Origin: an uncultured Bacteroidota bacterium
Lineage (GTDB): Bacteria > Bacteroidota > Bacteroidia > Chitinophagales > Chitinophagaceae
Length of the DNA stretch: 64,000 bases
Reading direction: 5' to 3'
Assembly: GCA_937928385.1 (NCBI GenBank)
Contig: CALEZD010000079.1
Location: forward strand, 296-64,295
Shown here piece after piece: positions 24,176 to 51,265 of this stretch. Within the stretch, counting starts at the first letter, position 1. Each line of letters opens with the position of its first letter. A program made the translations under genes and the position numbers. The notes below the pieces were generated by a model. The model had not been told where the DNA came from. It did no database searches and saw only the letters and a program-made list of their open reading frames with translations.

Positions 24176-24187
24176 CTATCTACACGA

Positions 24188-30840: not shown

Positions 30841-31982
30841 TCATCAACATTGTACACCTTAGCCATACGTTGCCTGAAACGTTCGTACGTGAATAGCCTG
30901 CTCATTTCAATAGTATTTTGACTAATACCCGAAAGTTGAGCATTGCCAGCTACACGATTAAGCGTTTCTATTATACTATGTGGTGTATTATCAGTCATCA
31001 GGAAACCATTAACCCCATCAGTTATCTGCCGTGTTATGGCAGACAGCGATGTGGTAACCGGTATACAGCCATAGGCAGCAGCTTCTGCAACCACCTTCGG
31101 GAAACTCTCTGAACTGCTGGGGAGTACCAGGAAATGGGCGTCTGCATATAATTTATTCAATACCTCCCTGCTGATATCGCCTGCCACAGTAATTCGTAAT
31201 TTTTTATTAGCCTTCGCGCTTTCTTTTACTTCATCTAACAACCTGCCGCCTCCGGCAATATGTAATTGTGTATAACACGTATTGAGTTTTTCACTCTGTA
31301 GTGCGTCCAATAACTGCATGATACCCTTAGTAGGCATCAGGTTGCCGACAAACAACAGGTGCAATTCTTTGCTGAAGTTTTTTTGCAGGCCGACGGCATT
31401 CATTGCTTCTATTTCGTGCCCATATATGCATGGGTTTTGCATATCGTGCACGTTTGCAGATTCCTCTTCGTTCTTACCGCTGATAATCACTTTAATATTA
31501 GGCTTACGTACCCGTTTCAGCAAACTTCTCTGTACCCGGTAGGTGAACGGAATGTTTTTGTCCGTCCACTCCCCGGCATATTTGTGCGCGTATATTCTTT
31601 TTTTATCCAACAATGAAAGTAATATCATCAGGAATGCAGGATGCGAAGGCCCACGTGTATGTACATGGGTAGCATGGGGCAAATACTTTAATATCCTGAA
31701 CAGGAAGACAGGATATGCCGCTAGTACGAAGAATATATTTTTCCAGCCGTTGCGACTGACGCAAGGTAACATCTCTGCATGTATCTTATTACTGTCAACC
31801 GGTTTCAGCGTAGCCTTTTTATGTAAAGTTCTTGCACCCAACCAAATGATATTGTCGAACATATCGCCTACGACCTTTAACTCGCGCAATACGGGATCGA
31901 AGACCAACAATTGGCCAGCATCATAATACATGGCGGTATCAGATACTACTAAGAGTGTACGCTTTTGTATATCTCCAGGCAC
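30837..31982 (-). CDS. Glycosyltransferase (GT-B, family 4/1-like)
   Basis: 381-aa ORF with motif LPSSSESFPKVVAEAAAYGCIPVTT. Confidence 0.8.
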   Translation of the reverse strand: MPGDIQKRTLLVVSDTAMYYDAGQLLVFDPVLRELKVVGDMFDNIIWLGARTLHKKATLKPVDSNKIHAEMLPCVSRNGWKNIFFVLAAYPVFLFRILKYLPHATHVHTRGPSHPAFLMILLSLLDKKRIYAHKYAGEWTDKNIPFTYRVQRSLLKRVRKPNIKVIISGKNEEESANVHDMQNPCIYGHEIEAMNAVGLQKNFSKELHLLFVGNLMPTKGIMQLLDALQSEKLNTCYTQLHIAGGGRLLDEVKESAKANKKLRITVAGDISREVLNKLYADAHFLVLPSSSESFPKVVAEAAAYGCIPVTTSLSAITRQITDGVNGFLMTDNTPHSIIETLNRVAGNAQLSGISQNTIEMSRLFTYERFRQRMAKVYNVDE

Positions 31983-32971
31983 CTGTTAATATAATCTTCG
32001 GGGTTGAACTTCTTTTTATATACTTCGCGCATTTTGTCCGGCAATTCAGTGTCAGTAATTATTTCCCGGATGCGTTGTTCCCATTGTGATTGTTCAAAGT
32101 TCTGCATAAGCAGTTGAGGCAATTCAGCTGACACTGTTTCTGCCGCACTGCCTGTTTTGTGAGCGATAAATGGTAAACCAGCGGCCAGGTATTCTATCAA
32201 CACCAGTGGCCCTGTTTCCTTAGGTGAACAGTGTATGGCAAGATTGTATTGCTGATAAAGCTGTGAAAAATCAGTTATACCGTTAATGATACGAATGCTT
32301 CCGTCATTGCCTGACAGAGCAAGTAACATATGATAATAGTCCTGTTCAATAATATTGCCGTAAATATCAAGTTGCCATCCCATACGCCTGCACAATTCAA
32401 TAGCAAACTCAATATTTTTCACTTGCCTGATATTGGCAACTATCATGGCTTTTTTACCGTTCGCCTTAATTGTTGAGCGTCTGATTTCAGGCATGGCAGT
32501 ATTTTCAAGAAGGAAAACATTTTGTTTGGCAATCTCTATTGTATTTTCCGCCCAGGTGGTTTGCTCCTTATTAACACCTATATAATATAGTGGCTTGAAA
32601 ATGCCCTTGAGTCGCACAGGAATATCAATAGTAGCGGCGGCATGGTCGTGGAGTATAAGTTTGTACTTGCCACCAAACAGCAATTGCGCTAACCTGATGT
32701 AAGCATATACATGCCTGAGGTGGGTGTGCACTATATCGTAACTGCTGCATATTCTATGTGCTTTATACAAAGTGAAAGGGTTGAATTTATTACCCCTGTT
32801 CAGCACATGAATTTTCAGCCTGCTGTCTAATTCTTTATCCAACGCACTACCTGCCGTAAAAAGTAATACGCCGGTATGAGCATTGCGTTCTGCAAGCAGC
32901 CCCGTGAGATTGACGAACAGTCGTTCAGCCCCACCTGTTTCCAACCTGTCTATAACATGCAGTACTTTCAT
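31949..32971 (-). CDS. Glycosyltransferase family 4
   Basis: 340-aa ORF with N-terminal KVLHVIDRLETGGAERL and C-terminal PKETGPLVLIEYLAAGLPFIAHKTGS. Confidence 0.8.
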   Translation of the reverse strand: MKVLHVIDRLETGGAERLFVNLTGLLAERNAHTGVLLFTAGSALDKELDSRLKIHVLNRGNKFNPFTLYKAHRICSSYDIVHTHLRHVYAYIRLAQLLFGGKYKLILHDHAAATIDIPVRLKGIFKPLYYIGVNKEQTTWAENTIEIAKQNVFLLENTAMPEIRRSTIKANGKKAMIVANIRQVKNIEFAIELCRRMGWQLDIYGNIIEQDYYHMLLALSGNDGSIRIINGITDFSQLYQQYNLAIHCSPKETGPLVLIEYLAAGLPFIAHKTGSAAETVSAELPQLLMQNFEQSQWEQRIREIITDTELPDKMREVYKKKFNPEDYINRCLEIYKSVHS

Positions 32972-34587
32972 TGTGCTGCTCTTCGTTTGGCCAATTCTTC
33001 GTTGGCGATAGCCAGGTTGGTTTTATATCCTTTACGCAATGCCGGTATCTTATACAAAAGGAACAGTAAACGCGCGATTTTCTTCATGATATTTCCGTTG
33101 ATGATAAGCTGGTTCATATACTTGATACGCACATGGCTTTTCAACTGTTTGTCGGAAAAGTATTTTTTTGCAATAAATATTTCGCTGGGACCGGGGTTCA
33201 GAACTTTAGTAATGGTGTTTTTAGTCATGAAGTTGGTCACAACTCTTGCATTGTGTGCCCTCAGTCCGCCTGATGGTGCACGGTGATGGCCTATTTCAGC
33301 CGAAGGATCGAATATCATTAAGGCACCATTCAAATGGCAGCGCATAGCCAGGTCGTGGTCGGCCTTTACATTCCGGTTAAAAAACATATCCATTTTCCCC
33401 GCCTGTTCCACTACCGACTTTTTGATTAGTGTAATTGGAAATGTATCGGACATATAATAATGATAGTTAGGTTCGCCATACACTATGCCTTTTTCCCTTA
33501 CGTTGGATGCTACCATGTCGGCATCGAAGCGTTGCATGGTTTGCAACATTTTTTCAATGAGTGCAGGTTGTATATCATAGGCATCGTCGCCAAAAAAGAA
33601 AATATATTCCCCGGTGGCTTCATCTATCAGTTTGTTCCAGGCCAGGCATTGTCCTTTTTCATCTTGCGGAAAATAGCGGACAGTAAGATTCGGATACTTC
33701 CCGAAATCAATTTGTTGCCTTCGTTCTTTGTCAGTCTGGTCGGTAATTAATACTTCGTGCGGGAGTATAGTTTGTTCATTCAACTCACGCAGTTCCTCTT
33801 CCAGGTAAGGATACCTGTCAAGTGTGGGTGCCAGTACTGAAACAGTAGCATATTTTACAGGCGTATTTGTTTGTACAGATGAATGTAAAGCAGGTAGCGC
33901 CTGAATAGATTTTATATTTTTTGTACTACGCCAGGCTTTTAAGTTTTCGAAAAAGCCAGGTTTATTGAACAATATCCATCCTTGCCATTTTTTAGTAAAA
34001 AACCGGCGGGCGAATACCCATTCATCTTTGAGAGGTATGTTGACAATATCTGTTACGGATTTGTTTAGCAGCGCGGCATGATACCGGATAATACCACCTT
34101 GTTTCAGTACCTGGTAGCCATAGGCTATACCTGCCATTTCCAGGGTGTCATACTCTATTGAAAACAAGCCGGTCTTTTTAAGTACATCCGTCCTGATAAG
34201 GCACACACGAAAACTCAACCGGAAATTACTGTGTATTCTCTCATCTGTGCCATCAACATTATACATCCATGTAGGGTGTACATAGTTGAGTACATCCGGC
34301 AGGCCACGCGTACCTAAACGTAAGCCTGCATGAAATGCGTCCACTGGACTTGTTGCCAGTTGTTGTATCAATTCAGTATCGGGTGCTCCTAATGCAAAGT
34401 CCCAAAAAACTATCCATTCGGCGTCAGTAGTTGCAATAACCTCGCTGACAATTTCATGCAGCTTTCGAACAGTTAGTTCCGATGAATACGATTTCCCGTA
34501 TGGCCATTGCACGTTGGCAGCATCTTCAGAAAAATATACCAGGTCGGCCCTAATGTCCATTATGCAATAGCCTGTAAAAGGCTTCAA
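32968..34587 (-). CDS. Glycosyltransferase family 2 with extra N-terminal domain
   Basis: 539-aa ORF. The C-terminal half has GT-A motifs (VSVLAPTLDRYPYL, ITDQTD, FFFGDDAY). The roughly 250-aa N-terminal half resembles a degenerate GT-A C-lobe. Confidence 0.7.
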   Translation of the reverse strand: MKPFTGYCIMDIRADLVYFSEDAANVQWPYGKSYSSELTVRKLHEIVSEVIATTDAEWIVFWDFALGAPDTELIQQLATSPVDAFHAGLRLGTRGLPDVLNYVHPTWMYNVDGTDERIHSNFRLSFRVCLIRTDVLKKTGLFSIEYDTLEMAGIAYGYQVLKQGGIIRYHAALLNKSVTDIVNIPLKDEWVFARRFFTKKWQGWILFNKPGFFENLKAWRSTKNIKSIQALPALHSSVQTNTPVKYATVSVLAPTLDRYPYLEEELRELNEQTILPHEVLITDQTDKERRQQIDFGKYPNLTVRYFPQDEKGQCLAWNKLIDEATGEYIFFFGDDAYDIQPALIEKMLQTMQRFDADMVASNVREKGIVYGEPNYHYYMSDTFPITLIKKSVVEQAGKMDMFFNRNVKADHDLAMRCHLNGALMIFDPSAEIGHHRAPSGGLRAHNARVVTNFMTKNTITKVLNPGPSEIFIAKKYFSDKQLKSHVRIKYMNQLIINGNIMKKIARLLFLLYKIPALRKGYKTNLAIANEELAKRRAAQ

Positions 34588-35770
34588 ACTTTTTCAATTG
34601 TTCCTCAATAGTGAAATTATCTGTCACGTGCTGCCTGCCGAGCTTACCTATTGCGAGAAGGAGTACCTTATTATTATAGCACCATTCTAATTTTTCAGCT
34701 ATTGCTTTTACATCATAAACAGGCACAACGAAGCCTGTTACGCCGTTCTGAACATTTTCTGACAGGCCATCTGCATTAGTAGTAACAACGGGTAGTTCCA
34801 TAGCCTGGGCTTCCAGTACGGCATTGCTGAACCCTTCTGATATAGCAGGGTGCAGAAACACATGCGCTTCCTCCAGGTGCTGTTTTACATCTTCCGAAGT
34901 ATGTGCAGGTATTATACGAACCTCCTCTTCAAGCCCTAACTCTGAAATAGCGAACAGTACTGGTTGCTTGTAATTGCCATCAGCAATTATCCGGTACTCA
35001 ACAGGTATGCCTTTTCCCTTTAACAGCGCTACAGCTTGTATACCATATTCATATCCTTTTTTCCATGCCAGCCGGCCAACGCTTACTATGGTAAATTTAT
35101 AGGAAGACTTAGTGTTCCCGGACGGCGTAAAAAAATCAGTATCAATACCCGGCGGGATTAAGGTTTCAATTCTGTTGGGTTGATAGCCACGTTTTATAGC
35201 TCGTGTTTTCAGATCATTGCCCAGGAAGTGGAAGGCGTCAAAATTCTGCCATACCTTTTTATAATAATTTTTGTCTTCAAGCCCGGTATAATTTATATCA
35301 TAACCCCGGAAACTGACGCTCGTTTTACAACGTACATAATCTTTTATATCGCTGAATTGGTGGGCCAGCGTGCCGTATTCAAAGTGTATGATGTCAGGCT
35401 GTAAATACAGTATTGGGAAGTACAAACTAAACCGTGTAAATACTTTCCGGTAATTCCATCCGTGATTTTTAATAAGCCTGAACAGTAAAGGCCAACTGAT
35501 TTGTGGAGCAAAAATTAACCCGGCGAGGTTTTTGAATAAGATCCTAACTATATTCTTTGTATCCAGTTTTTCGTAAAACAGGTGAATGTGTCTGGACGGT
35601 AGTTTATTAGTGTACTTCTGGTAAAACAATTTTCTATTTGCATTACTGTCCCAACAAATAAAATGAACATTGAACTTTTGAGACAGGCCAAATAGCTTAT
35701 ACTTCAGGAAATCAGTAGCAGGTAATGGAACTGAATTTGCAACCAGTAGTATTTTCAGCTTTCTGCTCAT
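34550..35770 (-). CDS. Glycosyltransferase family 4
   Basis: 406-aa ORF with WKKGYEYGIQA and HPAISEGFSNAVLEAQAMELPVVTTNADGLSENV. It is a paralogue of the 44297-45445 product. Confidence 0.85.
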   Translation of the reverse strand: MSRKLKILLVANSVPLPATDFLKYKLFGLSQKFNVHFICWDSNANRKLFYQKYTNKLPSRHIHLFYEKLDTKNIVRILFKNLAGLIFAPQISWPLLFRLIKNHGWNYRKVFTRFSLYFPILYLQPDIIHFEYGTLAHQFSDIKDYVRCKTSVSFRGYDINYTGLEDKNYYKKVWQNFDAFHFLGNDLKTRAIKRGYQPNRIETLIPPGIDTDFFTPSGNTKSSYKFTIVSVGRLAWKKGYEYGIQAVALLKGKGIPVEYRIIADGNYKQPVLFAISELGLEEEVRIIPAHTSEDVKQHLEEAHVFLHPAISEGFSNAVLEAQAMELPVVTTNADGLSENVQNGVTGFVVPVYDVKAIAEKLEWCYNNKVLLLAIGKLGRQHVTDNFTIEEQLKKFEAFYRLLHNGH

Positions 35771-37023
35771 AGTTTTAACAAAGCTTCTTTGAATTTCTCA
35801 TCCAGCTTTTCTTTAAAATCACCGGTTATCCCAAACCTGTGCTGGAACCACTTTACTTCATAGCCGCCTTCTGCAATATGTTTGTCGGCAGGCAGATATA
35901 TTCTTGTGCCTGCAAGGCAGCCTATCTTTAGGGTTGGGTAGTTGTTCAATGCCGCAGCAACAATGTCTTTATATTCCGCCAATACTTCAGCTGAAACGCC
36001 TATAAACTGAATATTATCCGCAAAACTCAACTTCCTGAAGTCAATATTATGGGTATCGTCCTCACCAATTATTTCATTTAGCGGCAGCTTGTATTGTGTG
36101 GTTGAAAGTTTTGTAACAGGTGTATTAGTTGATGATTTCAATACTGCTTTTGTTTCTTTCCACAATAAGCCAATCCACTCCAGGTAGTGGCTGGTGGATG
36201 GGAAACGTGTGTATTTAGGCCCAAACTGGAAAAAGTAATTAATCCTGTCTTTGAGACGAGTGTGTGTGATCGGTGTTACATCCGGCTTTATATTTCCTGC
36301 AAACCCGATAAAGAAGACAACAGACAATTTTTCATTCTGCAGGTAACCTCTCAGTTCATTTCTTATCAGCCCGGGAAAATCGGCAGATACCTGGCTGCGG
36401 TGCCTGAACCCGACAGGATGACAGGCATAGTTCCATAATACCATTTCGGATTGACCTGATTCATTTTTCAGGTGTATGAAATGGATGTCATCATCCTTCA
36501 CCCCATCATAGTCAGGGTACATCAAGGTTTTCCAGTATAATTTGAGCCCGCCTTTAGGCCGTAATAGTTTTTTACGCCGGTTGACATTTAAAGATGATTT
36601 GCCAGTTCCGTACGATACAGAAACCTTTTTATAATCCGCTGTCAACGTGTTTTGTGTCAGATGTTTTAATTTTTCTGTCACCAACTTATAATAATCTTCG
36701 TCCACTCGTCCGAGACCCGGCTTTTCCCTATCTAATCCCGGTGCGAAATGTGTATGGGATGCAGCCATCCATATATCCTTCTCCTGAAGATTGTATTGAG
36801 CACCGAATTGCTTTATTATTATCTGTGTAAACTCTTCCGGTACAAATAAGGTGTCGATAGAGTATAGCAAAACATATTTTCCTTCCTGCTGTAGCACAGC
36901 CAGGTTGATTTCCAGCCTGTCATGTATTTTGCTGTAAGCGCCGTGACGCTCCGCAAATCCGGCAAGGGCAATAGGCTTGTCCGGGGTTATATCAATATTA
37001 CCTGCTGAAAGGAATAAGTCCAT
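35767..37023 (-). CDS. Neutral/alkaline-ceramidase-like hydrolase domain protein
   Basis: 418-aa ORF. The N-terminal pattern GNIDITPDKPIALAGFAERHG..KIHDRLEINLAVL ... MAASHTHFAPG parallels the ceramidase_alk catalytic-domain pattern (DIT..GY..GIH..L.ARA ... THTHSGPG). Confidence 0.55.
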   Translation of the reverse strand: MDLFLSAGNIDITPDKPIALAGFAERHGAYSKIHDRLEINLAVLQQEGKYVLLYSIDTLFVPEEFTQIIIKQFGAQYNLQEKDIWMAASHTHFAPGLDREKPGLGRVDEDYYKLVTEKLKHLTQNTLTADYKKVSVSYGTGKSSLNVNRRKKLLRPKGGLKLYWKTLMYPDYDGVKDDDIHFIHLKNESGQSEMVLWNYACHPVGFRHRSQVSADFPGLIRNELRGYLQNEKLSVVFFIGFAGNIKPDVTPITHTRLKDRINYFFQFGPKYTRFPSTSHYLEWIGLLWKETKAVLKSSTNTPVTKLSTTQYKLPLNEIIGEDDTHNIDFRKLSFADNIQFIGVSAEVLAEYKDIVAAALNNYPTLKIGCLAGTRIYLPADKHIAEGGYEVKWFQHRFGITGDFKEKLDEKFKEALLKL

Positions 37024-37026
37024 GAA

Positions 37027-38793
37027 TTATTGTTTACGTTTTATGATGTAGTTACCTATTACCAGCGCGTCAATTTCAGAGTTCAGCAATACGTCAATAG
37101 CCTGTTCGCTATTGGCGACTATCGGGTAGCCGTGCAGGTTAAATGATGTGTTGAGCACGCAGGATATACCTGTTAGCTTTTTAAATTCACTGATGATGGC
37201 ATATAGTTCAGGGCTTCTTGCTTTGGTTACGGTTTGTGCCCTTGCGGTAAAATCTGCCTGGTGAATACCGCAGGTTATTTTGTCCCTTGCTGCTTCCCTG
37301 GTGTCAAATGCAAACATCATATAGGGAGAGCCTTGCTTTTGTAAAGATGCGGGAATTTCTATCATGGTTGCTGCATCCTCCCAAAGCATTGCCGGTGCGA
37401 ACGGCATCCAGAAGTCGCGTTTCTTTACGCTCCTGTTTATCTTATTGACATTCTGCATGCGCGATGGATTGGCGAGTATGGAACGGTTGCCTAATGCTCG
37501 CGCGCCGAACTCCATCTTTCCGCTGCAATGGGCAACGATCAAGTTGTTGCTCAGCATAGTAGCTACGCTGTTTGCTATATCAGATGAATTTTCTATTGTT
37601 ATTTGGCTACTATATTTATCTAAAGCCACAGACAAATCATTTGAACATTCCGGACCGAGCGTATAAGTATTCAATAAGTCACAGGCTTTGGCATACTTAC
37701 TGTTGTATACATGGAATGCAGCACCGAAGATATTTGACTCATCACCACAGGAGGGGAATATATCTATATATTCTATTTCGGATAATTGAGAGAGTAGTTT
37801 ATTCAGTTTCACATTCATGAAAACACCTCCAGAACACAGTATTTTTTTAATACCATATTTCCTGGTATTGCCCTTTACCCAACGCACGACAATATCTTCC
37901 GCAAAAGCCTGTAATCCGGCTGCTATATTATCAAACCGCGCACCGGTCAGGTTTTTTATTACTTCTGCAAAGAATACAGAATGGTTGATAAAATAAGGAT
38001 TAGCAAATTCGGTATCGTCATTTACCAATTTCAGGTAGTGTTCGAAAAAGGCCTTGTATTTTTCCGCATAGTCCGGGTTCACATAAGGTGCCAGCCCCAT
38101 TAGTTTGTATTCATGTTCGTGACTGCGAAAACCCAGGTGATGTGTTATAGCGGAATATATATTACCAACAGAGTATTCATTTCCGGCTGATTTCCTTTCA
38201 ATCTTTCCCTGGTGACCGATACTCACAGTAGAGCGCAGGTTATCTCCACCCCCATCCAGCGTGAAGATGAGGTATTGCTCATCCGTATTTTCTGCCAATC
38301 CGTAATATACCGAAGCTGCATGACAAAGATGATGCTCTACATGTATCACCTTATTTATGTCTAACCCGTAGGTTTCAAGTTTTTTATATAACTGTTCGTT
38401 GAAACTTTTATCAGCTTTTTGTTCTTCTTTAGCCTGTATGTATGATTTATATAAGCCTGCTGACTTCAGTTTGTTTTTAATATCCAGTTTGGTGCGTTCC
38501 AGCTTGACGTTATATGCCAGCAGTTTTCCATAGTTATAATGGTAACCGTAACGCTTGTAAAATTTATCGCGGGAGATATCGCTTAGTATCTCATCGCATA
38601 CCGCAATGTCTGTTAAATCACCCGGGTTGAAATAGCCTTGTCCTATGAGATACTGTAGGGCCTGCTCCGGAAATCCAAACCAGTTTTTAATCCTGTTGAA
38701 GCGTTCCTCTTCCACACAAATAACAGGTCGCCCATCCCTGAACAATCCGACTGAACTGTTTATACCTGCATTTATAGCTAATATCAAACTCAA
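37027..38793 (-). CDS. Carbamoyltransferase (NodU/CmcH family)
   Basis: 588-aa ORF with N-terminal ILAINAGINSSVGLFRDGRPVICVEEERFNRIKN and HHLCHAAS, plus a C-terminal carbamoyltransferase domain (NTSFNLHGYPIV). Confidence 0.85.
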   Translation of the reverse strand: MSLILAINAGINSSVGLFRDGRPVICVEEERFNRIKNWFGFPEQALQYLIGQGYFNPGDLTDIAVCDEILSDISRDKFYKRYGYHYNYGKLLAYNVKLERTKLDIKNKLKSAGLYKSYIQAKEEQKADKSFNEQLYKKLETYGLDINKVIHVEHHLCHAASVYYGLAENTDEQYLIFTLDGGGDNLRSTVSIGHQGKIERKSAGNEYSVGNIYSAITHHLGFRSHEHEYKLMGLAPYVNPDYAEKYKAFFEHYLKLVNDDTEFANPYFINHSVFFAEVIKNLTGARFDNIAAGLQAFAEDIVVRWVKGNTRKYGIKKILCSGGVFMNVKLNKLLSQLSEIEYIDIFPSCGDESNIFGAAFHVYNSKYAKACDLLNTYTLGPECSNDLSVALDKYSSQITIENSSDIANSVATMLSNNLIVAHCSGKMEFGARALGNRSILANPSRMQNVNKINRSVKKRDFWMPFAPAMLWEDAATMIEIPASLQKQGSPYMMFAFDTREAARDKITCGIHQADFTARAQTVTKARSPELYAIISEFKKLTGISCVLNTSFNLHGYPIVANSEQAIDVLLNSEIDALVIGNYIIKRKQ

Positions 38794-40040
38794 TGTATCG
38801 TATTTTGTTTTGCCAACATGGTGTCTAACACTTGTTGCATCAACGCAGCAGTGAACTTTTCAGCCCCCTCAATATTCAGATGCTCCGGGTCAAATACATT
38901 CCCCGGCCAGATGTAATCAAGCTGCGAAAGGTTATTCTCTTGCAGGTCTGACACATCAATGTAAGTAATGTTTTCATGGCGTAATTTGGCTATTTCCTTG
39001 TCAAACCATGAATGCCCGCCGGTATTCAATACTATATCGTTGTATATGGACTGTGGCAATTTTACTAGTACCAGTTTACAGCCTTTTTTTTGGAGAAAGC
39101 CAGCCAAATTTACTATTTCTTCTATCCTCGCTTCGTCAAATGTATTATCCTTAATGTTAACAACTGCCGCAGATTGCAAATATTTTATGAATTCTGTTTC
39201 GTTATCCAGGTATTTTTTGTCTATGGATTTCCGGTACATATTTCCACCTCTGAACCAATCATCGTATTTGTTCTTCAAAGTAGTTGTTACATCGTAACGC
39301 AACTGGGGCATGCATAGGTACTGTTCTATCAATTGGTCAAAAGAGGGTTTTTCTTCCCTGCTTTTTATCGCTTCTTTCACATACTCATGGCTGTGTTGGT
39401 TTTTATAGCTCTCCAGCATTTCCACCTTGTTCATTCCATATAGCACTACCGTTCCGGGTTTAAACGTTAAACCGATAGAATCAGCATAGCGCATAAACCA
39501 TGATGCTATGAAAGGAGTGTTATTTCCAGTAGTGAAATCCAATAAGTATTTGTCCGGGTGCTTTTCGTAAAATACCTGTCTGCTGAAGTCACAAAAGAAG
39601 ATAGAACTGCCCAGCAGTATTAAATCGGGTGCATGGTGTTTCCACAATTCATATCGTAGCCCCGGGTGTTCCCTTAATATATGTGGTTGACATTTATACC
39701 TGAATTGCGGTAAAGTAAACTCGGCGGATGTGGGTGTAGAAACGGGATAGTCATTATTGAGAATTATACTGTCATACATACCGTACATCCTGTTTAGGAT
39801 GATTTTTCCATGTTCAGTCTGCCGTTCCATGAACTTAAGGCGGTACGTTTCTTCATTAATTATGCTGATCTGTTCAGGACGTATGCTTAGTTGATTGGGG
39901 TAAATAGTATAGTACACTTTATTCGCAACTAATAACAATGCTAACGGCGAAAATAATATGATGACTACAAGTCTGTACCGCAAGTTGTCAAAAATTAAAA
40001 TATAGAAACTGCGGGTTATCTCCGAGTAACACCACCGCAA
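38790..40040 (-). CDS. DltD/AlgJ-like SGNH-type partner of the MBOAT acyltransferase
   Basis: 416-aa ORF with an N-terminal TM anchor, a candidate Ser block LILLGSSIFF and a C-terminal DPEHLN (D-x-x-H). It sits immediately downstream of the MBOAT gene. The start is uncertain (53-nt overlap). Confidence 0.5.
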   Translation of the reverse strand: MRWCYSEITRSFYILIFDNLRYRLVVIILFSPLALLLVANKVYYTIYPNQLSIRPEQISIINEETYRLKFMERQTEHGKIILNRMYGMYDSIILNNDYPVSTPTSAEFTLPQFRYKCQPHILREHPGLRYELWKHHAPDLILLGSSIFFCDFSRQVFYEKHPDKYLLDFTTGNNTPFIASWFMRYADSIGLTFKPGTVVLYGMNKVEMLESYKNQHSHEYVKEAIKSREEKPSFDQLIEQYLCMPQLRYDVTTTLKNKYDDWFRGGNMYRKSIDKKYLDNETEFIKYLQSAAVVNIKDNTFDEARIEEIVNLAGFLQKKGCKLVLVKLPQSIYNDIVLNTGGHSWFDKEIAKLRHENITYIDVSDLQENNLSQLDYIWPGNVFDPEHLNIEGAEKFTAALMQQVLDTMLAKQNTIH

Positions 40041-41454
40041 ACAGGAACAATGAGTATATCCAGATAACCCTTCCTGTTCTCAATTGGCTATTCAATAATA
40101 TTTCCTGCGAATTTTTGAAAAATACTGCAAGCACAAAAAATACCCCGAGGTACAATAATATACGGTTGGAATAAAAAGGCTTCTCCAGCAAAGTACTGTT
40201 CCATTCGCCAAAAGATACTATGCCTGAACGGGCTAAGACACTAATCTTTTGCAAGCCTTCGGGCAATACTATACCCGTCATACCTGACATTCCTTTCAAT
40301 ACTTTTATGGCATCTTCCCAACTGTTCGCCCTGAAGAACACCCATGCAGCATTTACAAATCCAAACGTGAGCGCCCAGGAAACGAATATTGGTAGGTTCA
40401 CTTTTGTCAGCCTGAACAAACGTTCCACTATAATAGCCATACCATGCAGAAAACCCCAGAAGACAAATGTCCATGCTGCCCCGTGCCATAGCCCGCCTAG
40501 AATGAATACCACCAGGAGGTTGTACAATTCTCTGCCGAAGCCTCTTTTATTACCTCCCAATGGTATGTACAGGTAGTCGCGCAAAAACCTGCTGAGTGTA
40601 ATATGCCATCTCCTCCAGAAGTCAGCTATACCCGTTGCTTTGTATGGCGAATTGAAGTTGACCGGTATCCTGATATTGAACATCAATCCCAATCCCACTG
40701 CCATATCGCAGTATCCGCTGAAGTCATAATAGAGTTGGAAGGTATAAGACAGTGATGTTATCCATGCTTCAGCGAAGTTGAGTACAGGTGCGGTGTCAAA
40801 ACCATTGTTGGCCCATATGGCAAATGTATCTGCAATCACTACTTTCTTTACCAACCCCATCATTACCAGCAAACTGCCTCGCACCAGGTTTTCATAATTA
40901 ATATACCTGTTTTCTTTTTGTGCGAATTGTGGCAACATCTCGCCATGGTGCACAATAGGCCCGGCTATCAGTTGTGGAAAAAATGTTACGAACAATGAAT
41001 AGTTTACCAGGCTATACTCTTTTGTTTGGCCTTTGTAGCAATCTACAAGGAACGCAATGGTTTGGAAAGTAATAAAGCTGATGCCCAGTGGTAGTATTAT
41101 ATCCTGTACGCGGAATGAAGTATTCAACAGGTGATTAGCGTTATCAATAAAAAAGTTGCAATACTTATAGTACCCCAGCAATGACAGGTTAACTATCACC
41201 CCAAATATCAACAAGGCTTTCCTGCTGAGTGTTGTTTTATTTAGAGATAGCTGCCTGCCTACAATAAAATTGAACATTATGGTGAACAGCAACAGAAATA
41301 CATATACAGGGTTCCACCAACCATAAAAAACAAAAGAAGCCAACAACAGGAAAAACTTCCCATTCTCAAACGAGGTATATTTATTCAATAAGAAATAAAT
41401 AATCCACGTGAGCGGAAGAAAGACCAGTAAGAACCCGTACGAATTAAAGAGCAT
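39988..41454 (-). CDS. MBOAT-family O-acyltransferase (AlgI/DltB-like)
   Basis: 488-aa polytopic ORF with conserved FWRRWHITLSRFLRDYLYIPLGGN and WHG motifs. Confidence 0.9.
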   Translation of the reverse strand: MLFNSYGFLLVFLPLTWIIYFLLNKYTSFENGKFFLLLASFVFYGWWNPVYVFLLLFTIMFNFIVGRQLSLNKTTLSRKALLIFGVIVNLSLLGYYKYCNFFIDNANHLLNTSFRVQDIILPLGISFITFQTIAFLVDCYKGQTKEYSLVNYSLFVTFFPQLIAGPIVHHGEMLPQFAQKENRYINYENLVRGSLLVMMGLVKKVVIADTFAIWANNGFDTAPVLNFAEAWITSLSYTFQLYYDFSGYCDMAVGLGLMFNIRIPVNFNSPYKATGIADFWRRWHITLSRFLRDYLYIPLGGNKRGFGRELYNLLVVFILGGLWHGAAWTFVFWGFLHGMAIIVERLFRLTKVNLPIFVSWALTFGFVNAAWVFFRANSWEDAIKVLKGMSGMTGIVLPEGLQKISVLARSGIVSFGEWNSTLLEKPFYSNRILLYLGVFFVLAVFFKNSQEILLNSQLRTGRVIWIYSLFLFAVVLLGDNPQFLYFNF

Positions 41455-43167
41455 TTACTTAAATACTTTATCAAGAAATACGGCAAACGTCAGTAGCATG
41501 GAAACAGCATAGCCGTTTGCCGCTATAGGGCGATTGTGTAAATCATCCAGCAATTCTTTTATTTTATATCCAGGTACTAGTTCGCTCAACAATTTATTGC
41601 CTAACAATCTCTGCTCCAGGTTTATCTTTCCGTTTGGGTTCAGGTAAAATACTTCCCAGTTTCTTTGTACCGGTTTGGTTTTAGTTATAGTCCTTTGAAT
41701 TTTTTTTACAGCCCTGTACGCAACATTCCTGTTATTGAAATATTTGTAGTTATACAAATCCGCATCATACTCCTGCCAGGTAATTCTTGCCAGGTCTTCA
41801 TGATGCTGTTTCAGATAGGCTATCTGCAGTTCACGGTTCTTTGCCAAATCGCCAGGAATGGTGCAAAACAAGTCAACAATACGTTTATCGTAAAATGGCA
41901 GTACAGGCATAACAGCTGCCTGGTACATACGCAAGCTGGCAGCCGTCCACCGGAAAGACCATTGGTCAGTCTTATATATTTTCATCAGGAAGTCCGCACT
42001 GTCGATGTGGCTGTATTGCGATACGAAGGATTGAAAATAGTCGTTCAGATATGCGGAACTGTCTTTAACATGCTGCTGACAAATATTGTCCAACAGCCAT
42101 TGCGAACCTTTTTTAATGATTTTTTTTTGAAAAGCCGGAACTAAATCAGCTTTCTCCTCAATATTCATACTATCCATCCATACATCGCCCCAATGGCCGC
42201 CTACCACCACGTCGGCGTTATGTTTCAACCAATCTGTAGCAGATGCCTGACGCGTACCATCTACATACTGGAATAACTCAACCGCCTCAGCAATTTCATC
42301 CAGTTGTTCAAACAAATAATCAGGCAATTGATATGAATGTATAGGTAAATTCCTTGCTTTGGCTATTTGCCTCCCTATCTGTATTTCAGGTGAATCGGCA
42401 GTATAGCCATAACAAAGCGCCTGGAGGCTTTTATAGTGCCAACCACCTCTTGATGTCAATTCACCCGCAAGCAAACGACTGTCTAATCCCCCCGATACTG
42501 GAATGACTGTACGCTTATTGTCTGTAGCAATAGTCAAGGAGGAGTGCAGAATGCCCTTTAATTCATTAATAGAACTTTCAGCCGGTTTTTCTGTTGGCTG
42601 ATAATCCCATTGCCACCAGCGTTTTTTTTCTAACAGGTTCAGGTCAGAATCAAAGTGATAATAGCATGCGGGCTCAAATATGTTTATGCCTTGTAAGTAA
42701 GTAGTATCATTGGGGAAATAGCCCATTGCCATGAAGCCTGTAATGCCTTCCCAATTTAGTTTTTTATTCGTTTTTGCTTTTGCCAACGCCAGGTAGTTGG
42801 TGGATATGATTTTATCTTTAGACCAATATGCGTGATAACTACCCATCCGGTTGGTAAACACATATACATCGCCGGATGTTATGGCAGTAACGAATATGAT
42901 ATAGTGCCCTGCAGGGTCATTGTATTTGTTGTCAGGATTGTGGATAAAATTGACACACCTGTTGAGCAACTCCGGTTTGTCAATCTTTTCATATAACTGA
43001 CCTATCAGGACCAGTTTATGTTTTTCGTTTTCAACTTCTGTAATGAAGTCGCTATTGCCGGGCAAACTGAGCCAGGTATTGCCTGATATATGGTGCCAAT
43101 CATTATTACTACCTCGCTTGTACGATGGTGCATTACCGCCTATCCATATATCGTAAAAGGCACTCAT
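41455..43167 (-). CDS. Asparagine-synthetase-B-family amidoligase lacking the N-terminal catalytic Cys
   Basis: 570-aa ORF with PP-loop VIPVSGGLDSRLLAGE in the central domain. The N-terminus is MSAFYD rather than the MCG expected of class II glutamine amidotransferases. Confidence 0.7.
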   Translation of the reverse strand: MSAFYDIWIGGNAPSYKRGSNNDWHHISGNTWLSLPGNSDFITEVENEKHKLVLIGQLYEKIDKPELLNRCVNFIHNPDNKYNDPAGHYIIFVTAITSGDVYVFTNRMGSYHAYWSKDKIISTNYLALAKAKTNKKLNWEGITGFMAMGYFPNDTTYLQGINIFEPACYYHFDSDLNLLEKKRWWQWDYQPTEKPAESSINELKGILHSSLTIATDNKRTVIPVSGGLDSRLLAGELTSRGGWHYKSLQALCYGYTADSPEIQIGRQIAKARNLPIHSYQLPDYLFEQLDEIAEAVELFQYVDGTRQASATDWLKHNADVVVGGHWGDVWMDSMNIEEKADLVPAFQKKIIKKGSQWLLDNICQQHVKDSSAYLNDYFQSFVSQYSHIDSADFLMKIYKTDQWSFRWTAASLRMYQAAVMPVLPFYDKRIVDLFCTIPGDLAKNRELQIAYLKQHHEDLARITWQEYDADLYNYKYFNNRNVAYRAVKKIQRTITKTKPVQRNWEVFYLNPNGKINLEQRLLGNKLLSELVPGYKIKELLDDLHNRPIAANGYAVSMLLTFAVFLDKVFK

Positions 43168-44285
43168 CGGTGTTTCATCAACTTGCTATACAACGCTTCA
43201 AATTTTTGCACTTCTTTCTGAATGGTATATTCTCCATATACTTTATCCAGTGCTCTTTCAGCCAGCTCTTTCGGGTAAGATGGTTTATTGATGAACTCTC
43301 GCAGGCAATCAGCCAATGCATCTGCTTTTTCAGGTTTGAATACTAAGCCTGTTTTGCCGTGCTGTATCAAATCACGATTGCCGGCAACGTCGCTTACTAT
43401 GCAGGGCGTACCAGCTGCCATGGCCTCTAATACAGAAACCGGGCAGCCTTCTTCATGGCCCATGTAAGTAGAAGTAGGCAGTACAAAGGCATTGCTGGCA
43501 TTCAGTAAGCTATTCACATTACTATAATGACCTGCTATTTTCACCCTGTCCTGCACCCCCAGTTTTTTTATTAACGCATCCAGTTCAGCTTTGTATTCAT
43601 TATCTCTTATTGCACCAGCTATGATTACATAGGTTTGTTCCACTTTGGCAGCCGCTTTTATTAAAGTCGCCTGGTCTTTAGCACGTACTAACTGTGCTAT
43701 GCAACTTACCATTAATGCCCTGTCCGGAATGCTAAATTCCTGCCTTGCAGACATGTCATACCCGGGTTTGAACTGCTCCGTATCCACACCCCCATGTATT
43801 AAATGTGACTTGCGCTTGTATCGCTTTGATGCAAAGAATGTTTCGAACATGGTAGTATTGCGTGCCACTACTGCGCTGGAAAGCATAGTTTTTGTTTTCC
43901 ATGCTTTTCGTCCCCAGTTCATGTTCTTTTTTACATACAGGTATTTTGCACCTGCCCAGCGCGCTACCAGCGCTTCTGAAAAATCTGAAGACCAGTTGAA
44001 CGACTGCCATATATCAAAGTCAAGCGACCTGAAGTCGCGGGCGTATGCCCTTGCACTTCTTATTTTATTTGCCAGGCTGGCCTGTTCGTCCGCTACAAAG
44101 GGTTGCACCACTATGGGCATCTTTTTTGCTATCACTTCATCAAACAGTTCGCCCCCTACCTGTTGCACGCCTATCCATGCTTCAAAAAGATTCTTGTCCA
44201 GGCGCTCCGCGATATTCAGCATTTCTCTGCCGCTGCCTGCTGTAGTTAAGTTGGGCAACGCAAACAGTACTTTTATTTTTTCCAA
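43164..44285 (-). CDS. Glycosyltransferase family 4
   Basis: 373-aa ORF with motif HEEGCPVSVLEAMAAGTPCIVSDVAGNRDLI. Confidence 0.85.
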   Translation of the reverse strand: MEKIKVLFALPNLTTAGSGREMLNIAERLDKNLFEAWIGVQQVGGELFDEVIAKKMPIVVQPFVADEQASLANKIRSARAYARDFRSLDFDIWQSFNWSSDFSEALVARWAGAKYLYVKKNMNWGRKAWKTKTMLSSAVVARNTTMFETFFASKRYKRKSHLIHGGVDTEQFKPGYDMSARQEFSIPDRALMVSCIAQLVRAKDQATLIKAAAKVEQTYVIIAGAIRDNEYKAELDALIKKLGVQDRVKIAGHYSNVNSLLNASNAFVLPTSTYMGHEEGCPVSVLEAMAAGTPCIVSDVAGNRDLIQHGKTGLVFKPEKADALADCLREFINKPSYPKELAERALDKVYGEYTIQKEVQKFEALYSKLMKHR

Positions 44286-44296
44286 TTATTAACCGG

Positions 44297-45445
44297 TTAG
44301 TAATTATAGAATTTTCTGAAAGAATCCACAAATGCTTGCCTGTTGTGTTGTTCTACAACTATTTTTTTCGCTTCAGTTGCCATAGCAAATCGTTGTTCTT
44401 TATTCAAAGAATACAAATTGCTTAATGCTTCTTTCAATGCGTGTATATCTCTGGCAGGCACTACATATCCTGACTTGCCTCTTTGTATTACTTCTGCTAT
44501 ACCACCCACACCTGTTGAGATGACAGGTGTACCTGAAGCCATAGCTTCCAGCACTGCATTGGCTATTCCCTCTTCCACACTAGGCAGCAACAACACGTCA
44601 TGCTTTTCTATTTCTTTCAAAACATCATTATGCGGCAACCCATTTACTATGTGTACCTCATCATTTATATCTTGTTGATGTAGCTGGTATTGAATACTTG
44701 CAGGCGTCTTTCCTTCTGCAATCAGAGTATAGGTAAATGGGATTCCTTCTCTTTTTAACATTCCTAGCGCATCCAGGGCATATTCATATCCTTTCTTCCA
44801 AAAGAAACGCCCGACAGAAATAATACGTAACTCCGGGTGGGGTGTTTTGGGCTGTATTTCTTTTTGCAGCAATTTGTCATCCACAAAGGAATAGATGATA
44901 TTGGTAGCCTCCGGCCTTGCTCCATATTGTGCTGCCTCATTCGCAATAGCTTTGCTCACTGCATGAAACCGATGTACCCTGGGAAACAGCCGCATGTAGC
45001 TCTCTTTTATTTCCGGTGTTGTGATAGGCGTGTAGTTGATATGCGCGCCGCGCAAGCTTACTAATATTTTATGGGGATATAAATCGAACAACAAATCCCT
45101 GTTATGAATAAAGGCTGCCCACTGCACATGTATCCTGTCCGGCTTTGAATATATTATTGGCAGGTAGAACAGTAAATCGTTATACAATTGCATAATCCCC
45201 CTGCTGCTCTTTACAATCCCCACAAAATGCCTGAATCCTGTCGCTAACAATAGTCTGATAATAAACAATACTTTGGCAAACACGCGTTCAGGGATCACGA
45301 TTACCGTTACATTCTGGTGATATTTAAAAGCTCCTGTCTTTTTGCCTATGATGGTAATGTCAAAACCGTCTTCTGCCATAGCATTGACCTGTGCGTCAAT
45401 GAAAGTGGTAGAAGGAACCGAGCCTGTTAGTACAGTTATATTCAT
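44297..45445 (-). CDS. Glycosyltransferase family 4
   Basis: 382-aa ORF with WKKGYEYALDA and PSVEEGIANAVLEAMASGTPVISTGVGGIAEVI. Confidence 0.85.
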   Translation of the reverse strand: MNITVLTGSVPSTTFIDAQVNAMAEDGFDITIIGKKTGAFKYHQNVTVIVIPERVFAKVLFIIRLLLATGFRHFVGIVKSSRGIMQLYNDLLFYLPIIYSKPDRIHVQWAAFIHNRDLLFDLYPHKILVSLRGAHINYTPITTPEIKESYMRLFPRVHRFHAVSKAIANEAAQYGARPEATNIIYSFVDDKLLQKEIQPKTPHPELRIISVGRFFWKKGYEYALDALGMLKREGIPFTYTLIAEGKTPASIQYQLHQQDINDEVHIVNGLPHNDVLKEIEKHDVLLLPSVEEGIANAVLEAMASGTPVISTGVGGIAEVIQRGKSGYVVPARDIHALKEALSNLYSLNKEQRFAMATEAKKIVVEQHNRQAFVDSFRKFYNY

Positions 45446-46944
45446 GCGCTATGTATGCCGTATATCCTGTTGAAAGGTTGTTGCGCTTTAGGAAAGGTAG
45501 CGGCAAGAAAATATGAAATGGTTTTAAGTTCTTTTGGAAAGAGAAGTTTTACAAACAGGTTATATACAAGTATAACAGCAATAGCTACTATAGCTATTAT
45601 CCAAAGTGGGTATATCCCTTCAAAGATAGCAGACACATAACTGCCCGTAATTCCTAAAACAGCCACTACAGCTATAATGCTCAGGAAATAAGGATAAAGG
45701 TCTTTGTACCACCGCATGTTGGGTAATTCAACCGCGTTCATAGTCAATCTTATACGCCAGTTGTAAAATACGGCACGTACAATTACTAAAGATAAAGCCA
45801 CACCAACAATACCACCATAATAAGCTCCTATGGCAGAACCAACCAGGTGCACGGGCGTAAAAAATAAGTTGACCTTAAAAGATTCTTTATTTCTGTGGTA
45901 AGCATTCATCACGATACTGAATGAACTGGTGACTGTACGCAATGCTGAATATATTATGAGTATCTGCATGGGCAATACAGCGTCTACCCACTGTGGGCCA
46001 TACATCAGTAGTATTATAGGCTTGGCTGTCAGTAGCATGATACCCAGGAAAGGCAGCAATACGAACGAGAATGTTTTCAGGAAACTCATATAGTGATGAT
46101 AGAACTTACTTTTATCATTCACGTATTTAGGCAATACAGACGACAGGATATTATTAGACACCATTATCAGTTGCGTGGTGAAAAGTTCTGCCATCTGCAT
46201 GGCAATGTTGTAAATACCCAGCATACTCAGCCCAAGCATTTTACTTAGGATAAATTTATCTCCATGGTCAGCCATACGCCTTAACAGCCCGGAGCCTATG
46301 AGATGTTTCGTGAAGTGGTATATTTCTTTCCAGCGCTCTGTGTACAGCCTCGTACCCGGTTTTAATTTAGTTGCCCTGTAAAACACCCATGTTTGTATGG
46401 GCGTGAGCAGCAGGGTAGGTAGAATAAGACTGTATACCCCAAACCCGGCAAAAACTGCCACCAGTTTGCCTAAGGGAATAAGTATGATAAACGGAGTTTG
46501 TATCCTTACCTGTTTATCAAACATCATGTTCCTGCTCAACCATGTTTTAGGAATAACAGCCAATTGCGAAAACACGAATATCCCACCTACTATAAAACTG
46601 ATGTCTCTTATCCGAGGTTCGTTTTGAAATACTGTCCATAAAGGCACTATGAGCAGGAAAACCCCAAGCACAACAAGCGTTATGACAATATTGAACCAAA
46701 ATGCCGCCCTGAATGTTTCCTTTACATCATCTTTACGGTATGCCAGCAGATATTCGCTCAGGCCTGTAGTGCCGAATACAGATACAAGGTACAGCAATAC
46801 TTCGGTAATGCTGACCAGCCCAAAGTCGTAGGGTGTTAGCTCACGTGCCAGCACAACGATGGTGGTCAGGCCCATCAGCTTTTCCAGCATGTTGCGCTGC
46901 AATATTTTTACAAATCCTTTTGCTGCTTTTTTCCCGATACTCAT
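45442..46944 (-). CDS. MOP-superfamily polysaccharide flippase (Wzx)
   Basis: 500-aa ORF with about 12-14 TM segments and the Polysacc_synt layout. It lies inside the operon between GT and sugar-nucleotide genes. Confidence 0.8.
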   Translation of the reverse strand: MSIGKKAAKGFVKILQRNMLEKLMGLTTIVVLARELTPYDFGLVSITEVLLYLVSVFGTTGLSEYLLAYRKDDVKETFRAAFWFNIVITLVVLGVFLLIVPLWTVFQNEPRIRDISFIVGGIFVFSQLAVIPKTWLSRNMMFDKQVRIQTPFIILIPLGKLVAVFAGFGVYSLILPTLLLTPIQTWVFYRATKLKPGTRLYTERWKEIYHFTKHLIGSGLLRRMADHGDKFILSKMLGLSMLGIYNIAMQMAELFTTQLIMVSNNILSSVLPKYVNDKSKFYHHYMSFLKTFSFVLLPFLGIMLLTAKPIILLMYGPQWVDAVLPMQILIIYSALRTVTSSFSIVMNAYHRNKESFKVNLFFTPVHLVGSAIGAYYGGIVGVALSLVIVRAVFYNWRIRLTMNAVELPNMRWYKDLYPYFLSIIAVVAVLGITGSYVSAIFEGIYPLWIIAIVAIAVILVYNLFVKLLFPKELKTISYFLAATFPKAQQPFNRIYGIHSA

Positions 46945-46964
46945 ATGTATCGTTAAAGAGAGAA

Positions 46965-47537: not shown

Positions 47538-47546
47538 TAATATAAA

Positions 47547-48839: not shown

Positions 48840-48863
48840 TGTTCAGAGTGTATATTGCCTGTG

Positions 48864-51248: not shown

Positions 51249-51265
51249 AGATGATGAACCCTATG

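Follow-up and report, generated by a model that had tools for sequence, protein, structure and literature searches.

Do five tailoring genes that lie side by side in one polysaccharide operon form a single module, or were they brought together by separate events? This question is raised by a stretch of 64,000 nucleotides from an uncultured Bacteroidota bacterium of the Chitinophagaceae (GenBank assembly GCA_937928385.1, contig CALEZD010000079.1, positions 296 to 64,295 of the forward strand), which was analysed as a whole and is called the window throughout. Here, five tailoring genes, all on the minus strand, lie within a capsule or exopolysaccharide (EPS) operon. They encode, in the direction of transcription, an AsnB-like PP-loop enzyme predicted to adenylate its substrate and to form an amide (41455..43167, 570 amino acids), an MBOAT acyltransferase, by its motifs of the PatA/AlgI type, with a C-terminal acyl-shuttle motif (39988..41454, 488 amino acids), a membrane-anchored SGNH-fold partner of the MBOAT (38790..39983, 397 amino acids), a carbamoyltransferase of the NodU/CmcH/TobZ family (37027..38793, 588 amino acids) and a short, predicted-cytoplasmic protein with a neutral-ceramidase fold, a putative zinc amidohydrolase (35767..37023, 418 amino acids). 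An initial annotation of the same DNA had described five contiguous tailoring genes between genes for GT4 glycosyltransferases, and the coordinates of the open reading frames (ORFs) as well as the flanking GT4 genes were borne out exactly. As this is a matter of gene content, a test against chance does not apply. Comparison of related loci shows that the block combines one conserved core gene with add-ons, which were inserted stepwise at one spot, and is not one module. Taken together, it is rather probable that the window carries a tailoring island, placed at a single fixed site within a Wzx/Wzy operon conserved in Chitinophagaceae, and that this island encodes a decoration pathway.

For the comparison, loci were anchored on the AsnB-like family in genomes of GTDB species, and the operon proteins were mapped by tblastn and hidden Markov models (HMMs). 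About 25 Chitinophagales loci have a backbone of about 16 genes in common, and the AsnB-like gene is present in every one of them, which makes it a backbone gene and not an accessory one. The order of the backbone is Wzc, dehydrogenase, acetyltransferase, Wzx, GT4, GT4, AsnB-like, GT4, GT2, GT4, GT4, Wzy, GT4, CapK-like, GT4 and epimerase. The insertion site is bounded upstream by the backbone GT4 gene at 43164..44285 (minus strand; Glycos_transf_1, 121 bits), the equivalent of which always lies 5' of the AsnB-like gene, and downstream by the backbone GT4 gene at 34550..35770 (minus strand; Glycos_transf_1, 114 bits). A further upstream GT4 gene (44297..45445, minus strand) also flanks the five-gene block.

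This site occurs in three states. In the first, the site is empty and the downstream GT4 gene follows directly after the AsnB-like gene, which is the case in at least 15 GTDB species (loci L012, L013, L015-L019, L021, L023, L025-L027, L032, L047 and L050). In the second, the site holds the ceramidase-like gene alone, as found in two lineages (L005/L014 and L006/L024). In the third, it holds the MBOAT, SGNH, carbamoyltransferase and ceramidase-like genes together, and this state is confined to one clade (the window, L001, L003 and L008-L011). The nearest relatives of the window are metagenome-assembled genomes (MAGs) of Flavipsychrobacter, with L008 at 81-98% protein identity. In neighbour-joining trees of the AsnB-like protein and of the downstream GT4 combined with GT2, the five-gene loci form one clade, and the ceramidase-only loci are interleaved with empty-site loci in its sister group. 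Furthermore, outside the five-gene clade of Chitinophagales the AsnB-like family is found in many phyla without the other four genes. The states of the site and the trees therefore identify the AsnB-like gene as core and the ceramidase-like gene as a patchy accessory, with the trio of MBOAT, SGNH and carbamoyltransferase genes inserted once between them.

The gene order of the whole locus of about 30 kb is kept as well (window 21353-52671, L001, L003, L008-L027, L047, L050), at an identity of the AsnB-like protein of only 46-86%. Wzx/Wzy loci are usually hypervariable. Because the order is conserved nevertheless, the locus may encode a common polysaccharide of the whole family.

The alternative closest to the initial annotation is that the five genes, or at least the MBOAT, SGNH, carbamoyltransferase and ceramidase-like genes, are one interdependent module, in which for example the ceramidase-like enzyme de-N-acetylates an amino sugar and the other enzymes decorate this residue again. 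In favor of such a dependence, the trio was never seen in this backbone without the ceramidase-like gene, and every junction within the block lies between -4 and +4 nucleotides. However, all trio-positive loci fall into one clade, and the co-occurrence of trio and ceramidase-like gene is therefore a single evolutionary event and not repeated evidence. The reverse combinations are also on record, since the ceramidase-like gene stands without the trio in two lineages and the AsnB-like gene without all four others in at least 15 species, so that the five genes do not hold up as one module. In addition, a relative of the SGNH protein is paired with an MBOAT in L091, where neither a carbamoyltransferase nor a ceramidase-like gene is visible on the 4.6 kb contig.

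The strongest case for the four accessory functions being linked comes from L092 (583-9242), an independent glycan locus that contains genes for a carbamoyltransferase, an SxtJ-like protein, CotH, an MBOAT, a protein of 289 amino acids and a ceramidase-like protein. Here, the ceramidase-like gene (32% identity) lies beside that for an MBOAT (34% identity) and one for the 289-amino-acid protein, which is anchored by a transmembrane segment and carries the motifs IGSSM and DAVH, i.e., a GSS...DxxH arrangement; the carbamoyltransferase (29% identity) is encoded 5.5 kb away, and the locus is arranged differently from the window. Nevertheless, this is one case among the seven contexts sampled, and the 289-amino-acid protein resembles the SGNH-partner family at motif level only (hhalign E 0.053, not significant). 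An interdependent module is thus considered unlikely, and the stepwise island is preferred.

The least familiar member of the island is the ceramidase-like protein. Taken alone, it reaches 23 bits with PF04734 against a threshold of 32.1, over residues 7-251 only, and among the matches listed a precomputed PF04734 match is present on about one third of its homologs. This family model often yields partial matches (PMC4443539). Single-sequence searches of the PDB with the ceramidase-like and the AsnB-like proteins gave no match, and family profiles were needed for both. A profile of 51 homologs of the ceramidase-like protein found the neutral ceramidases 4WGK (human) and 2ZWS (Pseudomonas) at E values of about 1e-12. 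The AlphaFold2 model has a mean predicted local distance difference test (pLDDT) of 96, and Foldseek retrieved neutral ceramidases only (2ZWS, 4WGK and 2ZXC; E 1e-20 to 1e-21, query-normalised TM-score 0.72-0.77), the remaining matches being noise. Residues H90, H92, R150, H202, E346, Y376 and Y388 align with H97, H99, R160, H204, E411, Y448 and Y460 of 2ZWS, which we take to be the zinc ligands and catalytic residues of that enzyme; in the 51 homologs, conservation at these seven aligned positions is complete or reaches at least 90%. The earlier naming of a ceramidase-like hydrolase is thereby confirmed as the catalytic fold of the neutral ceramidases.

The protein consists of this catalytic domain only (418 amino acids in comparison to 630-690), and the alignment ends with that domain. 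Neither a signal peptide nor a transmembrane segment was found, and the N-terminus begins at the first core strand. A cytoplasmic location is therefore predicted, in contrast to the ceramidases, which are secreted. Five of the seven distant homologs sampled are encoded in loci for polysaccharides with amino sugars, where the neighbors include DegT, GFO/IDH/MocA, hexapeptide and FemAB-like acyltransferase, PIG-L, WbqC, AsnB and Wzx genes.

Two further observations concern these distant relatives. In two Bacteroidales-type loci (L087 2413-10327 and L094 7674-11348) a sub-block recurs, composed of PIG-L, WbqC, other genes, the ceramidase-like gene and a gene for an unannotated protein of about 360 amino acids, and a canonical Cys-type AsnB is encoded in the same locus. 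In L093 (8001-10134), the gene of the homolog and the start of a hexapeptide acyltransferase gene share 8 nucleotides; this overlap is compatible with a pair that deacylates and then reacylates.

It might be argued that the protein is a true lipid ceramidase or N-acyl-lipid amidase, or a reverse N-acylase, and that it stands in the operon by chance or because the glycan is anchored to a lipid. Sphingolipids are made by many Bacteroidota, and neutral ceramidases also catalyze the reverse condensation. These enzymes are the sole structural relatives, and all aligned catalytic positions are retained. On the other hand, the signal peptide, transmembrane segment and C-terminal domain of the secreted enzymes are missing, the gene overlaps the downstream GT4 gene by 4 nucleotides inside a glycan operon, the identity to ceramidases is 10-12%, and the five homologs in glycan loci have neighbors of the kind listed above. 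A lipid substrate is thus regarded as quite improbable. The reading preferred here is a glycan-directed enzyme. More broadly, and with some reserve, the short, signal-less ceramidase-fold proteins can be proposed as a hitherto unrecognized class of cytoplasmic glycan-tailoring amidases: they might be N-deacylases acting on nucleotide- or undecaprenyl-linked amino sugars, or reverse, coenzyme A (CoA)-independent N-acylases, which swap N-substituents alongside hexapeptide, FemAB-like, AsnB-like and carbamoyl-transfer enzymes. In the Flavipsychrobacter clade, this step might be followed by carbamoylation of the freed amine or a neighboring hydroxyl and by O-acylation through a PatA-type MBOAT with a new family of SGNH partners. 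Although possible, this broader proposal is held more tentatively than the island itself.

Two further genes of the island encode the acyltransferase and its partner. The MBOAT protein matches PF03062 with 136.5 bits against a gathering threshold of 27, and its nearest solved structures are those of DltB (E 1.5e-26). The motif FWRRWH (His284) aligns with FWNRWH of DltB, and LWHGAAW (His324) with FWHGITW. The protein fails to reach the cutoff of the DltB equivalog TIGR04091 (160.6 bits against 375). Its C-terminus, F483-L-Y485-F-N-F488, is an FxYxxF acyl-shuttle motif, and the same motif ends the MBOATs of L091 (FLYYSF) and L092 (FIYFQF). In PatA, the tyrosine of FxYxxF is auto-acetylated, and its acetyl group is then passed on to PatB, an SGNH protein (Anderson et al., PMC12148441). 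DltB lacks a fused FxYxxF and relies in its place on DltX, a microprotein, and on the carrier protein DltC, and a fused motif on extra helices, which replaces DltX, marks the acyl-CoA-using types PatA, AlgI and WssH (PMC12148441). Because of the fused C-terminal motif, which is absent from DltB, the MBOAT is, as judged from its sequence, of the PatA/AlgI/WssH type and not of the DltB type. The family assignment of the initial annotation, an MBOAT O-acyltransferase, thus stands.

For the SGNH partner, searches of Pfam, NCBIfam and PDB gave no sequence match, even with a family profile; neither ALGX (PF16822) nor the DltD Pfam family matched the protein or its close family. Distant relatives have only sub-threshold matches to Lipase_GDSL_2, DUF1574, ALGX and SGNH. 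The SGNH fold was therefore resolved by structure prediction only. The AlphaFold2 model (pLDDT 88.8, predicted TM-score 0.85) has 46 top Foldseek matches in the PDB, which are of the SGNH fold with the possible exception of a few designed scaffolds (9hi4-9hi6). The matches include PAF-AH, RGAE, DltD, PatB and OatA-C at target-normalised TM-scores of about 0.5; DltD (6PFX, 7DXM) is the sole near-full-length match, with 372-383 columns and a TM-score of only 0.32-0.35. Across relatives of 24-30% identity, the GSS motif (S126/S127), the GNN motif (N155) and H368 of the DPxH motif are invariant and D365 is nearly so; the positions of GSS, GNN and H368 fit SGNH blocks I, II and V in the strand and helix order of the model. 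One transmembrane helix (residues 5-23) is preceded by two arginines.

The family of this partner is narrow. It comprises 43 clusters at 90% identity, all from Chitinophagales, and only 25 matches at E <= 0.001 were found among 1.84 billion cluster representatives, which speaks against a common, already characterized cassette. A metagenome scan for divergent relatives returned three loci, one of which, L091, is informative: a relative of 30% identity adjoins an MBOAT, and the order of the two genes is reversed. The pairing of MBOAT and SGNH protein has therefore outlived divergence and rearrangement. The ORF encodes a genuine partner of the MBOAT, comes from an SGNH family for which no model exists, and belongs neither to the DltD nor to the AlgJ family; what had been called a DltD/AlgJ-like SGNH partner is SGNH-like by fold and motifs of the model, and its sequence places it in neither of the two named families. 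Taking the classification by HMMs and predicted structures together, neither the ceramidase-like nor the DltD-like ORF fell into an unrelated family, and all five original assignments hold at the level of superfamily or fold.

A Dlt-like aminoacylation with D-alanine or another amino acid by this pair, with the CapK-like enzyme activating the amino acid, in place of O-acetylation, is very improbable, since the fact that the MBOAT matches DltB best in NCBIfam and PDB, the near-full-length match of its partner to DltD and the adenylate-forming CapK/PaaK-like gene in the operon are outweighed by a score far under the DltB cutoff, by the fused FxYxxF on extra helices typical of acyl-CoA-using types (PMC12148441), by a block packed too tightly to conceal a carrier-protein or DltX-like gene, by the low TM-score to DltD without a DltD Pfam match and by the occurrence of the CapK-like gene, a backbone gene, in loci without an MBOAT.

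The AsnB-like protein carries the PP-loop SGGLDS at residues 225-230, which is invariant in the family. As a single sequence it stays under the cutoffs of PF00733 (18.7 bits against 21) and TIGR01536 (34.8 bits against 267); PF00733 does match most of its homologs, and the family profile finds 7YLZ (E 4e-9) and CarA, the carbapenam synthetase (1Q15). The N-terminus, MSAFYD, is conserved in the family and has no Cys2, and neither a GATase_6 nor a GATase_7 match was obtained. With the cysteine nucleophile of the glutaminase missing, the protein is therefore not a standard glutamine-dependent amidotransferase, and it is best described as a predicted adenylating, amide-forming enzyme without canonical use of glutamine. 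Thus, the designation as an AsnB-family amidoligase is right for the superfamily, as the PP-loop and the profile indicate.

Two side observations belong to this protein. Its C-terminus (41455-41520) is a conserved hydrophobic stretch, NGYxVSMLLTFAxFL, with a Kyte-Doolittle value of 1.62 over 19 residues, through which the enzyme might be anchored at the membrane, close to lipid-linked substrates. In a Rhodothermales MAG (L028 4-3300), an AsnB-like homolog (41% identity) and, directly after it, a carbamoyltransferase homolog (26% identity) are encoded, and these two families are thus associated a second time.

The carbamoyltransferase itself matches Carbam_trans_N (PF02543, 129.6 bits) and Carbam_trans_C (PF16861, 198.6 bits). 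Both domains, the Kae1-like and the YrdC-like half, are clearly above threshold, in agreement with the NodU/CmcH assignment proposed before. It reaches only 110.8 bits with the NodU equivalog NF041651 (cutoff 1000) and is therefore a member of the family and not an ortholog of NodU. A transmembrane segment was not detected in it.

How could these enzymes act together? The pathway outlined in the following is built on what was observed, namely gene identity at the level of fold or family, catalytic motifs, the nested history of the site and the MBOAT-SGNH pairing across divergent loci; from these we infer every substrate, every product and the order of the steps. With undecaprenyl phosphate as the carrier, a small phosphoglycosyl transferase and eight glycosyltransferases would assemble the repeat unit, the sugars of which probably include an N-acetyl-hexosaminuronic acid. 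At the cytoplasmic face, the AsnB-like enzyme would adenylate a carboxylate, most likely C6 of the uronate, and form an amide with ammonia or another amine. The ceramidase-fold protein, as a zinc-dependent amidohydrolase, would take an N-acyl group, probably N-acetyl, off an amino sugar. The NodU/TobZ-type enzyme would use carbamoyl phosphate and ATP to carbamoylate a sugar hydroxyl or possibly the freed amine, i.e., N-carbamoylation might possibly take the place of O-carbamoylation. After flipping or polymerization, the MBOAT would load an acyl group, probably acetyl, from acyl-CoA onto its own Tyr485, from where it would move to the serine of the periplasmic, membrane-anchored SGNH partner, which would then O-acylate the polymer as in the PatA/PatB mechanism. 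Only the two steps of the MBOAT-SGNH pair draw on a characterized homologous mechanism together with several conserved diagnostic features. A heavily decorated polysaccharide, as envisaged in the initial annotation, is a reasonable prediction from the genes.

Several points weigh against this pathway. The substrates of the ceramidase-fold and the AsnB-like proteins are guesses from fold and context. The identity of the former to true ceramidases is so low, at 10-12%, that its reaction could differ, the role of H97, H204, E411 and Y448 of 2ZWS as zinc ligands is an assumption, and two of the seven distant homologs (L007 and L093) lie outside obvious glycan loci. Enzymes of the NodU family also use non-sugar substrates. 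For the SGNH partner, the model fits solved structures over the core only (query-normalised TM-score of about 0.3), and the asparagine of block III is not kept in the wider family.

The operon that hosts the island (21353..52671, minus strand) was delimited by Pfam and NCBIfam matches as well as by synteny in Chitinophagales, and is a classical Wzx/Wzy-dependent capsule or exopolysaccharide locus. It starts with UpxY/NusG-like, Wza, Wzc, a TviB/WbpA-like UDP-GlcNAc 6-dehydrogenase, a hexapeptide acetyltransferase, Wzx and two GT4 genes, followed by the island and then by GT4, GT2, two GT4, Wzy, GT4, CapK-like, GT4 and a WecB-type 2-epimerase; a SAM methyltransferase, a GFO/IDH/MocA oxidoreductase, a DegT aminotransferase and the small phosphoglycosyl transferase form the 3' end. 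The glycosyltransferases amount to seven GT4 and one GT2. The dehydrogenase (575.7 bits against the TviB model) would supply uronic acid. Two genes named before as further parts of the decoration were recovered, the CapK-like gene (27184-28491), with weak PaaK-type matches and PF27533 CapK_C on its homologs, and the SAM methyltransferase gene (24188-24910), with a Pfam match.

Across the block and the flanking GT4 genes, the junctions as called mechanically are -4, 0, -53, -4, +3 and -4 nucleotides. The overlap of 53 nucleotides between the MBOAT and SGNH genes is an artefact of ORF calling, in which the ORF was extended to the most upstream TTG, at 40040. Codon 20 of this ORF is a TTG at 39983, 4 nucleotides past the MBOAT stop, and it aligns with the M(K/N)(F/Y)KRV start of the homologs (397-398 amino acids, gap of 3-5 nucleotides). 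The true gene is thus most likely 38790-39983, and with this start all junctions of the block lie between -4 and +4 nucleotides. The tight packing claimed earlier is therefore real, apart from the 53-nucleotide overlap; it suggests translational coupling and does not demonstrate it. GC content and third-position GC content (GC3) of the inserted genes match those of the backbone, giving no sign of a recent transfer of the trio. The count of promoter-like sites in the block is near the shuffled expectation under a sigma-70 model, which is ill-suited to Bacteroidota, and the terminator-like sites on the minus strand (44038-44024, 41673-41656, 41416-41403, 39618-39606 and 34744-34722) all lie inside coding sequence.

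At the head of the operon, the UpxY-like NusG/KOW antiterminator gene (52177-52671, minus strand) lies immediately 5' of Wza (51266-52081, minus strand), and upstream of it are an unassigned ORF of 178 amino acids (52677-53213) and a CBS-nucleotidyltransferase gene (53360-54412). Just past the operon head, an ORF for an IS200-like Y1 transposase (55913-56464, plus strand; PF01797, 33 bits) is found where the GC content drops from 0.49 at 54-56 kb to 0.38 at 56-58 kb. The GC-rich stretch also holds two ORFs of about 330 amino acids on opposite strands, which overlap almost fully (54712-55692, plus strand, and 54748-55740, minus strand); the one on the plus strand has no Pfam match.

On the other side, convergent with the 3' end of the operon, lies a gene for a CapD/PglF/WbpM-type 4,6-dehydratase (Polysacc_synt_2, 384 bits; 19381-21321, plus strand). 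DegT and the small phosphoglycosyl transferase are encoded beside it, which points to a sugar of the bacillosamine or QuiN4N type as the initiating one. A precursor pathway to UDP-ManNAc3NAcA (WbpA/B/E/D/I-like) was considered and not firmly assigned: all five enzyme types are present, and it was not adopted because only a single DegT is encoded and the CapD/PglF-like dehydratase with the small phosphoglycosyl transferase fits a bacillosamine-type sugar equally well. An extra GT4 gene (16039-17163, plus strand) is encoded opposite to the main operon and does not form part of it.

MBOAT-SGNH pairs, NodU-type carbamoyltransferases and AsnB-like enzymes are already familiar from glycan or natural-product pathways. 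What is new is the family of SGNH partners without a model and, above all, the widespread family of signal-less, uncharacterized ceramidase-fold enzymes that recurs in glycan loci and represents the main novelty. A literature search found nothing on either family and no connection between a ceramidase-fold enzyme and glycan loci of bacteria, in line with the earlier remark that the combination with such an enzyme was not recognized as a described module. New is also the clean nested series of locus states, which makes the assignment of genes to modifications directly testable; empty, one-gene and four-gene sites on the same backbone form a natural comparative series for this purpose. If the ceramidase-fold protein is a sugar N-deacylase, the ceramidase fold would gain a role outside sphingolipid metabolism and would join PIG-L/LmbE, CE4 and the LpxC type as a fourth structural class of enzymes that de-N-acetylate glycans in the cytoplasm or periplasm. 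With the MBOAT-SGNH pair, the recently established tyrosine-shuttle mechanism would reach a Wzx/Wzy heteropolysaccharide and a new family of SGNH partners. No major paradigm is changed by this, and the organisms are uncultured or little-studied environmental Bacteroidota.

In comparison to known systems, the operon resembles the capsule loci of Bacteroides, which likewise have a NusG/KOW (UpxY-like) gene ahead of Wza. With the neutral/alkaline ceramidases (PaCD, 2ZWS/2ZXC; human ASAH2, 4WGK), the window protein shares the fold of the catalytic domain (TM-score 0.77). It lacks their C-terminal beta-sandwich domain and secretion signal, is set in glycan operons, and its predicted substrate is an N-acyl amino sugar and not ceramide. 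The AsnB-like protein shares the SGGxDS PP-loop domain with the AsnB-superfamily enzymes of glycan and natural-product pathways (WbpS-type, TIGR03108, CarA, beta-lactam synthetase and TsnB9, 7YLZ), although it stays far under the cutoffs of all family-specific models. Like the amidotransferases of WbpS-type uronamide synthesis and of the XrtA/PEP-CTERM EPS systems (TIGR03108), it is encoded in a polysaccharide locus, here one predicted to make uronic acids. Without the cysteine and a recognizable GATase domain, it resembles CarA and beta-lactam synthetase more than the glutamine-dependent AsnB or WbpS. The carbamoyltransferase has both Pfam halves of NodU, NolO, CmcH and TobZ, and the expected chemistry is the same, with carbamoyl phosphate and ATP giving carbamoyl-AMP, from which the group is passed to a hydroxyl; its gene lies in a capsule or EPS operon, in contrast to the Nod-factor and antibiotic clusters of these relatives.

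With the DltB/DltD system, the pair shares DltB as the closest solved MBOAT structure, although at a score under the equivalog cutoff. DltD and the SGNH partner have a similar size (about 390 amino acids), a transmembrane anchor and the order Ser...Asp-x-x-His in common, at a TM-score of only about 0.32-0.35 and without a match to the DltD Pfam family. DltA and DltC were not found here, and DltX would not be needed, as the MBOAT bears its own shuttle peptide. In AlgJ and AlgX, Asp-His precede the serine, whereas the serine comes first in the window partner. No model of PatB, AlgJ, AlgX or WssI matches this partner, and it differs from PatA/PatB-type partners in that a long helical stretch of some 115 residues is inserted between its third and fourth strands. 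Nevertheless, the closest parallel is PatA/PatB, and likewise AlgI/AlgJ/AlgX and WssH/WssI. Like them, the pair combines an MBOAT with invariant histidine and a C-terminal FxYxxF tyrosine shuttle with a separate extracytoplasmic SGNH-fold protein on one N-terminal transmembrane helix, both encoded by adjoining genes, and the same absence of a carrier protein implies an acyl-CoA donor. The difference lies in the acceptor, which would be a heteropolysaccharide made by a Wzx/Wzy system instead of peptidoglycan or a homopolymer made by a synthase.

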